This document shows, in pieces, positions 1 through 2,162 of a DNA stretch of 24,301 bases. The notes below the pieces were generated by a model that was not told the origin of the DNA, searched no databases, and worked only from the letters and a program-made list of their open reading frames with translations. This DNA comes from a virus: the UHGV virus genome UHGV-1420800; one strand, 5' to 3'. Numbering within the stretch: the stretch's first letter is position 1; every line of letters begins with the position of its first letter. The translations under genes were made by a program, and so were the position numbers.

Positions 1-44
1 ATAGCGTAGCGTCTCGTGGGCTCGGAGATGTGTATAAGAGACAG
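1..44. other. Library adapter: reverse complement of Nextera/Tn5 mosaic-end read-through adapter (CTGTCTCTTATACACATCTCCGAGCCCACGAGAC, 11-44) preceded by about 10 nt of index-like sequence
   Basis: Positions 11-44 read gtctcgtgggctcggagatgtgtataagagacag, the exact reverse complement of the Nextera adapter; the forward form recurs at the other end of the window. Not biological sequence. Confidence 0.9.
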
Positions 45-432
45 CTCTAATACTGACGTATTAGAGAGTGCCACAGCAGACAAAAAGTCTGACAAGAAAA
101 AACCTTCCGTTAGCTGTCAGGATGTTGTCGATGCTTACCACGAAATCCTTCCTGAAGCGCCAAGAATCCGCGCACTGAATGACAAGCGTAAAAACCAGAT
201 CCGAACGTTCTGGCGCAAAGCCGGAGTGATAACCCGCCAGCTTGACGGGCATGGGTTCACGATGCAGGACTGGAGAAATTATTTGAGCTACGTAGGCGAA
301 AATTGCCGATGGATGTTCGAAGAGCGTCCAAACCATCAACGCGGAACCGTCTGGCACAAAAAGGGATTTGATTTCCTGCTTAACGACAATACCTACCTGA
401 AAGTTCGTGAGGGTGAACACGATGACCGATAA
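45..432 (+). CDS. Phage replication initiation protein (O-like / replisome organiser), C-terminal fragment; 5' end missing at contig/adapter boundary
   Basis: Open frame from the first genomic base to TAA at 430-432, immediately upstream of and overlapping the DnaB-like helicase, as in lambdoid replication modules. The Met at 16 in the ORF track is adapter-encoded. Family assignment is by position and recalled conserved C-terminal motif only. Confidence 0.55.
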
Positions 433-1858
433 TTTTTATGCGCCGCCCCATAGCATCGAGGCTGAGCAGGCGGTGATTGGTGGATTGCTTCTGGATGATG
501 ACAGCAGTGAGCGCGTCCAGAAAGTTCTGGCGATGCTGAAGCCTGATTCATTTTACAGCCGACCACACAAAATCCTTTTCGAAGAAATAACCAGAATGCA
601 CCGGGAGCAAAAGCCAGTAGATGGCCTGACGCTTTTCGATGAACTGGAGCGTAAATCGTTAACGGCGTCTGTTGGCGGTTTTGCTTATATCGCTGAGATC
701 GCAAAGAACACGCCAAGCGCCGCAAACATCGTTGCCTATGCAATGCAGGTTCGTGAAACCGCAATGGAACGCTACGCCATTAACCGCATGACTGAAGCGA
801 CGGAATTGCTCTATTCACGCAACGGAATGACTGCAACGCAGAAGTACGAAGCTATTCAGGCGATTTTCACGCAACTGACAGACCATGCAAAAACCGGATC
901 GCGTCGCGGCCTTCGCTCATTTGGTGAGGTCATGGAAGACTGGGTTAGCGACCTTGAGAAGCGATTTGACCCGTCAGGCGAACAACGGGGAATGAGCACA
1001 GGGATCCCATCGCTGGACAGGATGCTGTCGCCGAAAGGTCTGGTGAAAGGCTCTCTGTTTGTCATTGGCGCTCGCCCTAAGATGGGGAAAACGACGCTAT
1101 ACAGCCAGATGGCAATCAACTGCGCAGTGCATGAGAAAAAGCCCGCTCTGATGTTCAGCCTTGAAATGCCAGGTGATCAGATACTGGAAAAACTGGTAGG
1201 ACAGAAGTCAGGTGTTAACCCGAATATTTTTTACCTTCCGGCGACAAATGACGCTGATGACGGCTATCAGGGTGATTACGATGGTGACTTCAACAGGGCG
1301 ATCGAAACAGCCAATCGCTTGAGTGAAATCGACCTGCTTTACATCGACGACACGCCGGGATTATCTCTGGCTCAAATCGTCAGCGAAAGCCGTCGAATCA
1401 AACGAGAAAAAGGATGCGTTGGCATGATTCTGGTCGATTACCTGACGCTAATGACCGCTGAAAAGGCCGATCGTAACGACCTTGCCTACGGCATGATCAC
1501 CAAAGGACTGAAGAACCTTGCCAAAGAGCTTGATTGCGTTGTTGTGCTTCTGACACAGCTTAACCGCGCACTGGAAAGCCGAACCAATAAACGCCCATTA
1601 CCAAGTGACTCACGAGATACAGGGCAGATTGAACAGGATTGCGATTATTGGGTGGGGATCCATCGTGAAGGTGCTTTTGATGACAGTGTTCCACCTGGTG
1701 AAACCGAACTAATCCTTCGTCTCAATCGTCATGGCAATACCGGCACGGTGTATTGCATTCAGGCAAATGGAGCTATTTATGACACAGACCAACAGTCTGC
1801 TGAAATGCGCCGCCGTGAACGCGAGGAACCGCAGTCCAAGAAGAAAGGAGGATTCTGA
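422..1858 (+). CDS. 12: Replicative DNA helicase, DnaB family (P22 gene 12-like)
   Basis: 478 aa from ATG 422 (the ORF track uses an upstream GTG at 407). DnaB N-terminal motif (SIEAEQAVIGGLLLD) and Walker A GARPKMGKTT; RBS-like GAGGG upstream; overlaps the stop of the upstream replication gene. Confidence 0.9.
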   Translation: MTDNFYAPPHSIEAEQAVIGGLLLDDDSSERVQKVLAMLKPDSFYSRPHKILFEEITRMHREQKPVDGLTLFDELERKSLTASVGGFAYIAEIAKNTPSAANIVAYAMQVRETAMERYAINRMTEATELLYSRNGMTATQKYEAIQAIFTQLTDHAKTGSRRGLRSFGEVMEDWVSDLEKRFDPSGEQRGMSTGIPSLDRMLSPKGLVKGSLFVIGARPKMGKTTLYSQMAINCAVHEKKPALMFSLEMPGDQILEKLVGQKSGVNPNIFYLPATNDADDGYQGDYDGDFNRAIETANRLSEIDLLYIDDTPGLSLAQIVSESRRIKREKGCVGMILVDYLTLMTAEKADRNDLAYGMITKGLKNLAKELDCVVVLLTQLNRALESRTNKRPLPSDSRDTGQIEQDCDYWVGIHREGAFDDSVPPGETELILRLNRHGNTGTVYCIQANGAIYDTDQQSAEMRRREREEPQSKKKGGF

Positions 1859-1886
1859 TGACCATCTACATCACTGAGCTAATAAC

Positions 1887-1918
1887 AGGCCTGCTGGTAA
1901 TCGCAGGCCTTTTTATTT
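1887..1918 (+). terminator. Intrinsic terminator, tR2-like (between replication genes and nin region)
   Basis: Perfect 8-bp inverted repeat aggcctgc / gcaggcct (1887-1894, 1903-1910) with an 8-nt loop, followed by ttttattt. Its position matches the terminators removed by nin deletions in lambda. Confidence 0.6.
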
Positions 1919-1946
1919 GGGGGAGGGTAATTGGAGGCTTTAAGAA

Positions 1947-2162
1947 ATGAGTACGATAGTTGAGCTTGTCCGCGCCGACTTTCAGGAGAACATTGGTCGT
2001 GCAAAGCGGTACTGGTCTGCTTCCAGACTTCCGACTGGTGAGAGACAGAAAAACGCCCCTAAGCCACGTAGCTATCCGCGTGACCGCGTTCTTCGCCGGT
2101 TGGTTAAAATCGATACTGATTTTCAGTGTGACAGAATTATCCGGAACCTGGATTTAAAGTGA
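1947..2162 (+). CDS. Hypothetical small basic protein
   Basis: 71-codon ORF with GGAGG 8-9 nt upstream of ATG 1947; no family recognised. An overlapping alternative frame exists (1960-2157), so the frame choice is uncertain. Confidence 0.4.
   Translation: MSTIVELVRADFQENIGRAKRYWSASRLPTGERQKNAPKPRSYPRDRVLRRLVKIDTDFQCDRIIRNLDLK

Follow-up and report, generated by a model that had tools for sequence, protein, structure and literature searches.

A ninA mini-gene with an embedded tR2 terminator, as known from lambda-like phages, downstream of a phage DnaB-like helicase gene

The mini-ORF, its junctions and its hairpin

Does the short segment between the replicative helicase gene and the next gene of this phage hold a small gene, a transcription terminator, or both at once? 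The window (the whole 24,301-nt stretch of virus genome UHGV-1420800 that was analyzed) begins inside the replication module and takes in neither N nor a nut region. The DnaB-like replicative helicase gene lies at positions 407–1858 on the plus strand (phrog_19, E = 3e-137; labelled 'P: DnaB-like replicative helicase' in HK620). It is followed on the same strand by a 30-codon mini-ORF at 1858–1950, taken from the ORF list and encoding the peptide MTIYITELITGLLVIAGLFIWGRVIGGFKK, and by a DUF7301 gene (1947–2162, plus strand, 71 aa; PF23975, E = 4e-24; phrog_1785). A 70-aa ORF and NinB come next in the gene order, which places the mini-ORF and its hairpin, here called ninA and tR2, between the replication and the nin genes.

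A Shine-Dalgarno sequence, AAAGGAGGA, is located within the final helicase codons (1844–1852, plus strand), 5 nt ahead of the ninA ATG (1858–1860). An earlier note had described the ORF and this spacing, and both were confirmed from the sequence and the ORF list; the proposed translational coupling to the helicase is also compatible with a start that lies on the helicase stop. The junction itself had been given as an ATGA overlap. In fact the helicase stop TGA (1856–1858) and the ninA ATG have only A1858 in common, giving TGATG (1856–1860), and the true ATGA is at the other end of the ORF (1947–1950), where the ninA stop TGA (1948–1950) is overlapped by the ATG of the DUF7301 gene at 1947. This second overlap was absent from the first description of the locus. 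A GGAGG at 1933–1937 (plus strand), within the ninA tail and 9 nt ahead of ATG 1947, is the likely Shine-Dalgarno of the DUF7301 gene.

The ninA frame is the sole open frame across the region. A minus-strand ORF (1879..2004, 41 aa) was dismissed, as nothing supported it. ORFs of at least 20 aa are frequent in this genome (84 in 5 kb); ninA and its hairpin stand above chance because they are near-identical to a conserved module that hundreds of phages share.

The stem-loop occupies positions 1887–1910 on the plus strand, with the 5′ arm AGGCCTGC at 1887–1894, the loop TGGTAATC at 1895–1902 and the 3′ arm GCAGGCCT at 1903–1910. Its 8-bp stem contains six G-C pairs, and it runs into the U-tract TTTTTATTT (1910–1918, plus strand), which lies on the strand of all flanking genes. 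The perfect 8-bp hairpin with a T-run at 1887–1918 was thus present as previously described. The hairpin folded with −15.7 kcal/mol (z = −3.6), and none of 200 shuffled sequences was equally stable. Significance was limited to this local hairpin: the whole 121-nt region, when folded, showed no significant global structure (z = −0.48). A generic terminator scan taken alone returned 7 sites against 7.0 expected, which is not above chance. The Rfam search gave no match in the region and is uninformative, as we know of no Rfam model for lambda tR2. A bidirectional terminator was rejected, since on the opposite strand the stem is not followed by an adequate T-tract.

Hairpin and T-tract match those of lambda (NC_001416, hairpin at ~40597–40620) with 100% identity. 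On sequence criteria, they qualify as an intrinsic (Rho-independent) terminator, namely the well-studied lambda tR2. The earlier designation 'tR2-like' can therefore be taken further, since the match with lambda tR2 is base for base over hairpin and T-tract. From the behavior of intrinsic terminators in general, we assume that tR2 transcripts end within ninA codons 18–21, ~30 nt short of the ninA stop. The hairpin and T-tract are also identical to the tR2 oligonucleotide used in the plasmid experiments of Li et al. (NAR, 2016; PMC4824070).

Over positions 1858–1923 a single base, at 1872, differs from lambda. Lambda tR2 (~40597–40629, between ren and ninB), whose loop and U-tract are likewise the same base for base, also closes the replication module just before the nin genes, and ninA encloses it there as it does here. 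The two loci differ in the upstream gene, which is a DnaB-type helicase here (as in HK620) but ren in lambda; in the overlap, which is TGATG here and ATGA in lambda; in the Shine-Dalgarno, which is the stronger one here; and in the sequence past the T-tract. A G-rich motif, GGGGGAGGG, follows the T-tract (1919–1927, plus strand) and marks the end of the module common to phages; in lambda-type arrangements the following gene uses it as its Shine-Dalgarno. Homology with lambda, 933W and phage 21 stops within this motif, at window position 1925.

Constraint on the hairpin, the junctions and the peptide

We compared ~250 loci in all. A long upstream ORF ended on, or abutted, the ninA ATG in 125 of 127 loci, through ATGA (86), TGATG (24), TAAATG (14) or TGAATG (1), and the genes whose stop falls on the ninA start belong to at least six different, unrelated contexts. 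At the other end, the ninA stop overlaps, abuts or is near the start of the next gene in most loci, with at least 10 different downstream genes. When loci were anchored on the same helicase, the module was found in all 78 usable ones; in 14 of these it followed one additional gene, again with an ATGA overlap.

The stem was never broken among the compared loci. Changes were from G-C to G-U or compensatory, and in the helicase-anchored set every single-base stem variant was from G-C to G-U. HK97-type modules have another hairpin with a T-tract (−12.6 kcal/mol, z = −3.2) at this site, and its variants differ from one another by a compensatory pair change. HK97 gp56 shares the first 32 nt, the position after the helicase and an ORF that contains a hairpin and T-tract, but it carries a hairpin of its own (GGGGCTATT...AGTAGCCC), so that the middle of its peptide reads GAIYTVALFYW.

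The ORF is kept less strictly. In 5 of 119 loci, ninA start and hairpin are separated by an HNH insertion. The earlier note had named genomes with an intact hairpin and a broken frame as evidence against a coding role; a frameshift or stop destroyed the ORF while the hairpin stayed intact in ~5% of loci (L232/L256/L258, L263 and W21stop), and the ORF was kept in the other ~95%. Since the ~5% survive with a broken ORF, the ORF is dispensable, at least in prophages.

The peptide belongs to a known family: profile phrog_5907 matched it with E = 5.2e-17, residues 1–26 aligning to positions 1–26 of 27, and profile searches found no model for it in Pfam or NCBIfam. In ninA of lambda, P22 and HK620 (M10074, NC_002730; phrog_5907) residues 1–22 are identical or one residue off, the start lies on the upstream stop, codons 10–18 encode the tR2 hairpin and the stop is on or near the next start. 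The tails differ: VIGGFKK here (30 aa), GKS in lambda (26 aa) and VNRG in HK620 (27 aa). The downstream partner here is the DUF7301 gene rather than ninB. The same tail variant is called 'NinA protein' in PhiR12_1, where the arrangement of this tail with DUF7301 also occurs.

The module is >95% identical almost everywhere, so selection on the peptide could be judged only by counts of distinct variants. Codons 2–10 showed seven synonymous and six non-synonymous variants against 23–27% expected, a mild synonymous excess (P = 0.016–0.036). In codons 10–22, which cover the hairpin and T-run, five synonymous and eight non-synonymous variants were counted (P ~0.4), with no synonymous excess. Over the 29 nt upstream of the hairpin, conservation is far stronger than a spacer or bridge alone would require, and the synonymous excess there would fit selection on the N-terminal peptide, DNA-level conservation or recent spread. 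The C-terminal tails are not conserved (more than 20 kinds, with lengths from 20 to 86 aa). Non-conservative changes in the hydrophobic core included L13Q in eight loci, T10K and I20N, and at one locus an inverted loop gave GLRLPAGLF, introducing R and P.

The hydrophobic segment proposed in the earlier note is real: the best 19-residue window of ninA, a membrane-spanning length, has a Kyte-Doolittle mean of 2.04, with one Glu inside. The GC-rich palindrome and the U-tract probably dictate most of the hydrophobicity in the peptide's second half. In SH2026Stx1 gp28, a variant that has no hairpin, the tail is still hydrophobic and its end basic.

These sequence comparisons provide (i) clear evidence that the hairpin and the coupling geometry are under selection; and (ii) weak evidence that the peptide itself is.

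Termination and translation at tR2

In lambda, tR2 is read through by the phage antiterminator N. We favor, with a probability of about 0.85, the reading that positions 1858–1950 of the window constitute a ninA-tR2 module, in which an antitermination-sensitive terminator is embedded in a translated "bridge" ORF. The terminator would end early rightward transcription past the replication genes unless the polymerase has been modified by an antiterminator. By stopping unmodified polymerase it would, in this phage too, gate the downstream nin genes and the late-gene activator. On read-through transcripts, ribosomes coming from the helicase would re-initiate at ninA, cross the terminator region and pass to the next gene, and the bridge would leave the tightly interlinked nin operon without an untranslated gap. 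If a transcript ends at tR2, its ninA has no stop codon, and ribosomes would therefore form non-stop complexes. The peptide itself would be without function.

All the experimental evidence comes from plasmid-borne lambda sequence, with de novo initiation of NinA and without coupling to an upstream gene. In vivo, tR2 had an efficiency of ~0.9 when the upstream stop codon was at least ~30 nt away, and with the natural upstream sequence the efficiency was already ~0.8 at 18 bp (Li et al., 2016, PMC4824070). In the phage studied here, the helicase stop is 28 nt from the hairpin, on the natural-sequence plateau of that efficiency-distance relation. The NinA initiation site was called "not weak"; it cut upstream RFP expression two-fold, a drop ascribed to non-stop mRNA, and mutation of the RBS or the AUG restored RFP (Li et al., 2016). 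Lambda has GGAG where the window has AAAGGAGGA, and mutation of GGAG abolished NinA initiation (Li et al., 2016).

Because the lambda NinA start site has been shown in use in these plasmid experiments, ninA is more than a coding appearance, and the choice offered by the earlier note between a micro-protein and a terminator by-product proved too narrow. That the ORF is a non-functional by-product, with the terminator alone of importance and translation irrelevant noise, would agree with a hairpin that is conserved more strictly than the ORF, with the ~5% of loci in which the ORF is broken, with the HNH insertions between ninA start and hairpin (5/119 loci) and with the lack of an annotated ORF in RefSeq lambda. 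We nevertheless regard it as distinctly improbable, since in six or more unrelated upstream contexts the ATG, with its Shine-Dalgarno, is placed exactly at the stop, and in 10 or more downstream contexts the ORF ends at or close to the next start. Such geometry at both ends is unlikely by chance, the right frame having a likelihood of ~1 in 3 per independent junction. The experimentally observed initiation on the lambda sequence (PMC4824070) and the HK97-type module, which exchanges the hairpin and retains ORF and coupling, argue in the same direction. NinA might conversely be a functional single-pass, membrane-active peptide made with the replication and nin genes, the terminator being overprinted on its gene. 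The Kyte-Doolittle mean of 2.04 over 19 residues, the retention of the ORF in ~95% of loci, the mild synonymous excess in codons 2–10 and the active initiation site on lambda plasmids (PMC4824070) speak for a peptide, as does the hydrophobic middle kept in HK97 gp56 and in the hairpin-less SH2026Stx1 gp28 despite differing DNA. Homologues, however, are limited to near-identical DNA copies, the C-terminus is freely replaced, the core tolerates L13Q, T10K, I20N and a loop inversion that adds R and P, codons 10–22 show no synonymous excess, and some loci with an intact hairpin have a frameshift or stop in the ORF; U-tracts and GC palindromes code for hydrophobic residues in any case. The nin region, known for its ATGA-interlinked genes, is non-essential, and no NinA phenotype was reported in the nin-region literature examined. 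This possibility is accordingly judged unlikely.

The layout also invites comparison with leader-peptide attenuators (pyrBI, trp), in which a short translated ORF likewise lies over an intrinsic terminator and the position of the ribosome decides termination. If ninA were such an attenuator, ribosomes coupled from the helicase would melt or mask the hairpin, and translation efficiency, not the antiterminator alone, would set termination. Ribosomes that stop within a few nt of tR2 do nearly abolish termination, and tR2 placed late in an ORF works at 40% of its normal efficiency (PMC4824070). The exact arrangement has been measured, however: translation from the NinA start, 30 nt ahead of the hairpin, lowers tR2 efficiency by just ~10%, a small effect because over the first 100 nt the polymerase stays out of the ribosome's reach (PMC4824070). 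The helicase stop, 28 nt away, is moreover on the plateau for natural sequence. Translational control of this kind is thus very unlikely. By analogy with lambda, for which it is established with N, tR2 would here be controlled by phage antitermination, unlike pyrBI and trp.

The overlap might be functional per se: the module would tie termination at tR2 to how stable the upstream mRNA is, and perhaps also to whether a small membrane peptide is made. Transcripts ended at tR2 would then be translated non-stop mRNAs that recruit tmRNA, and the early replication-gene message would decay faster. Complete NinA would be made solely from antiterminated transcripts, because the ninA stop is always beyond the tR2 release point. 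We consider such a role improbable. The start-dependent two-fold drop of the upstream reporter (Li et al., 2016, PMC4824070), obtained with plasmid-borne lambda sequence, bears on it.

Occurrence and annotation of the module

The feature is already known: it is the ninA mini-gene and tR2 of lambda-like phages, real but ordinary. It adds nothing to the biology of the lambda paradigm. ninA was reportedly named in 1982 by Kroger and Hobom. The mini-gene is annotated in P22, HK620, Nil3 and others, and HK620 and Nil3 additionally mark tR2 within ninA. In RefSeq lambda and in E. coli genomes annotated with PGAP the gap is left empty. The description of the ORF as unannotated therefore holds for automatic annotation, but not for P22, HK620 and Nil3, where it is named, nor for PHROG, which has a family for it. 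The exact peptide found here is listed at NCBI as a hypothetical protein in 284 contigs, and the lambda-type 26-aa form as 'NinA protein'; a literature search with the literal peptide string matched no paper.

The module was present in 415 phage records; of 5426 complete E. coli genomes, 2053 carried it, and E. coli copies number roughly 3000. In over a third of the complete E. coli genomes, pipelines thus leave blank a ~90-nt gap for which ninA/tR2 is the proper label, since it contains a classic terminator within a mini-ORF that is probably translated. An exhaustive search of 1.84 billion representative sequences recovered ninA relatives only as near-identical copies; three long repetitive hydrophobic proteins that also matched were taken as chance matches. 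In a scan of genome contigs for the module, Escherichia and Shimwellia were the only clearly genuine carriers. Most matches were low-coverage contigs with the lambda sequence that came from assemblies of unrelated bacteria; these were read as contamination with lambda DNA, and 20-mer matches in membrane or signal-peptide genes (Klebsiella and others) as chance. The module also occurs in two MAG contigs that bear non-enteric labels, possibly through mis-binning. To judge a role of the NinA peptide or of non-stop mRNAs, natural variants could be used as ready-made controls, namely frameshifted copies, the loci with a loop inversion or an HNH insertion, and the alternative hairpin of the HK97 type.

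The tR2 terminator within ninA

The window comes from a P22/HK620-like lambdoid phage. Its DnaB-like helicase gene (407-1858, + strand, ORF list; phrog_19) is followed by the 30-codon ninA ORF (1858-1950, +, ORF list; peptide MTIYITELITGLLVIAGLFIWGRVIGGFKK), with a Shine-Dalgarno sequence, AAAGGAGGA (1844-1852, +), 5 nt 5′ of the ATG, as the earlier note had described. That note also reported an ATGA overlap at the helicase stop; the actual overlap is TGATG, the stop TGA (1856-1858) and the ninA ATG having one base in common. The ninA stop TGA (1948-1950) in turn runs into the start codon, ATG at 1947, of a DUF7301 gene (71 aa, +; PF23975, phrog_1785), so that both ends of ninA are coupled. 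The DUF7301 gene and one for a 70-aa protein (phrog_18758), both small, conserved and of unassigned function, occupy 1947-2379 between ninA and ninB.

The predicted hairpin (arms 1887-1894 and 1903-1910, +, 8-nt loop) was found with its T-tract, TTTTTATTT, which reaches 1918. It folds at -15.7 kcal/mol (z = -3.6), and 0 of 200 shuffles were equally stable. Since a generic terminator scan of the region showed no enrichment over shuffles (7 sites, 7.0 expected) and small ORFs are plentiful in its ORF list, the case for a genuine feature is conservation.

The feature is confirmed, and it is already known, as lambda tR2 inside ninA. Lambda, where the match lies immediately 3′ of ren, differs from window 1858-1923 by one base in the alignment, and the hairpin and T-tract, called tR2-like from the sequence alone, are identical to tR2. 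The original P22 record labels the ORF "ninA protein", HK620 carries ninA and a regulatory feature "terminator tR2", Nil3 carries NinA and tR2, and PhiR12_1 has a "NinA protein" with the VIGGFKK tail and DUF7301 neighbour of the window. The peptide matches phrog_5907 (profile search, E = 5e-17); its 26-aa lambda-type form is called NinA in UniRef, and the exact 30-aa peptide is in NCBI as a hypothetical protein (284 contigs). "Unannotated" thus holds for RefSeq lambda and PGAP-annotated E. coli genomes, where the gap is empty, but not for the four phages named. BLAST placed the segment in 415 phage records, and it occurs in 2053 of 5426 complete E. coli genomes (2993 places); an exhaustive search of 1.84 billion representatives returned no relatives past near-identical copies. 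As described by citing papers, ninA opens the non-essential ninR region, in which genes are known to be interlinked by ATGA (Kroger and Hobom, 1982).

Conservation of the hairpin and of the gene junctions

Among 119 IMG/VR loci anchored on the hairpin, the ATG lies 29 nt 5′ of it in 114; the other five have an HNH endonuclease gene, its TAA abutting the hairpin. Junctions were scored in 127 loci with sufficient flank. The stop of a long upstream ORF overlaps or abuts the ninA ATG in 125 (ATGA 86, TGATG 24, TAAATG 14, TGAATG 1), a placement that fits the translational coupling proposed earlier. This geometry is kept over at least six unrelated upstream genes, and at the other end most ninA stops overlap or adjoin the start of the gene that follows, with at least 10 different genes in that place. 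In a set meant as an unbiased sample, selected only by an identical helicase C-terminus, each of the 78 usable loci has the ninA-type start and terminator module, in 14 of them preceded by an additional gene of 89 aa, here too through an ATGA overlap. Both frame and junction geometry have survived many exchanges of modules, which would be difficult to account for if translation through ninA were of no consequence.

The peptide varies more loosely than the hairpin. Stem substitutions in the helicase-anchored set are all G-C to G-U, and a single stem mismatch was seen in one locus (L161) of the 5′-anchored set. About 15 loci have a different hairpin and T-tract in place of tR2, as in the ninA-type ORF HK97 gp56 (-12.6 kcal/mol, z = -3.2), and variants of this hairpin include a compensatory T-A to C-G change. 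Peptides range from 20 to 86 aa with >20 different C-terminal tails, and carry the variants L13Q (8 loci), T10K, I20N and W21stop. Loci keeping the hairpin with a broken ORF, which the earlier note had set against a coding role, do occur: a 1-nt loop deletion in L263 introduces a stop at codon 14 and leaves stem and terminator intact, and a 1-nt deletion in codon 2 (L232, L256 and L258) gives MTSTSLR and a stop with the hairpin intact. In locus L212 (IMGVR_UViG_2778261637_000005), the tR2 loop just 3′ of the helicase stop is a near-exact inversion (GATTACCT vs. the usual TGGTAATC) within an intact stem, turning the LLVIA core of the peptide into LRLPA (GLRLPAGLF); either inversion mediated by the palindrome or an artefact of assembly could account for it.

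Counts of distinct variants gave 7 synonymous and 6 non-synonymous changes in codons 2-10, where 23-27% synonymous were expected (P = 0.016-0.036), and 5 and 8 in codons 10-22 (P about 0.4). The comparison of synonymous with non-synonymous change, proposed earlier as a check, thus gives a weak coding signature for the 5′ part and none for the hairpin part. Selection acts on the terminator and on the geometry of coupling.

Translation, termination and the role of the peptide

The terminator of a plasmid study of lambda tR2 (Li et al., NAR 2016, PMC4824070) is this one: the oligonucleotide aacaggcctgctggtaatcgcaggcctttttatt equals window 1884-1917, and constructs also had natural lambda upstream sequence with the NinA Shine-Dalgarno and AUG. 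Efficiency of tR2 rose to ~0.9 when the upstream stop codon was at least ~30 nt from the hairpin, and was ~0.8 already at 18 bp with natural upstream sequence; in the window 28 nt separate the two. The initiation site of NinA "is not weak": it halved expression of an upstream reporter, which recovered upon RBS or AUG mutation, and the authors ascribed the halving to non-stop mRNAs and trans-translation (PMC4824070). Where the earlier note posed a micro-protein or a by-product of the terminator, the lambda copy is translated and its terminator still functions.

The most likely role of ninA is that of a short translated bridge ORF: on read-through transcripts it would pass ribosomes from the last of the replication genes over the terminator to the nin gene that follows. 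An attenuator controlled by ribosomes is unlikely, since translation from the NinA start lowered tR2 efficiency by only ~10% (PMC4824070), the ribosome being unable to catch the polymerase within 30 nt.

The peptide, or the non-stop transcripts that arise when tR2 fires within the translated ORF, may serve the phage in some way, though this is less likely. Residues 11-21 of the peptide are hydrophobic because G, L and A codons come from the GC palindrome and F, I and L codons from the U-tract; in Klebsiella michiganensis and K. grimontii (L144 and L150) the 20-mer GCCTGCTGGTAATCGCAGGC lies within ordinary signal-peptide coding sequence (MNKFFKLTALAGLLVIAGQSFA...), so the palindrome alone encodes a typical hydrophobic core. 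A peptide function would fit SH2026Stx1 gp28 (MTIYITELIAGLSLLMVLTVYIIKYILYANKKTN), which stays hydrophobic and basic-ended without any hairpin, although its tail comes from AT-rich DNA of an inserted HNH cassette. The 5′ 29 nt of ninA are likewise conserved beyond the needs of a spacer, but the strong difference in termination between W18 and R17 (PMC4824070) indicates that natural upstream sequence acts on termination at the nucleic-acid level.

That cassette, ~690 bp and encoding an HNH endonuclease, is inserted precisely where the first 30 nt of ninA would meet the tR2 hairpin (phage SH2026Stx1, L126 511-1232; also L011, L082, L136, L189 and L231). The ninA start there heads a 34-aa hydrophobic ORF that contains no hairpin and overlaps the HNH start, and the HNH stop TAA lies directly against the hairpin; Li et al. 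(PMC4824070) found repressed termination for this position.

Other observations in the window and databases

Window 10-48 (GTCTCGTGGGCTCGGAGATGTGTATAAGAGACAG) is a Nextera/Tn5 read-2 adapter with mosaic end; library adapter is thus present at the contig 5′ end and makes the initial residues of ORF 16..432 artefactual. The sole Rfam match within the window is an int-alpA RNA (RF02996; 7677-7739, +; 42.3 bits vs. a gathering score of 35.8). Low-coverage contigs identical to lambda around tR2 (L127, L130, L132-L135, L137, L138, L140-L143, L146-L148 and L151) sit in assemblies labelled Pseudomonas, Oceanobacillus, Bradyrhizobium, Shewanella, Nocardioides and others, and almost certainly stem from lambda control DNA that contaminates public genomes.
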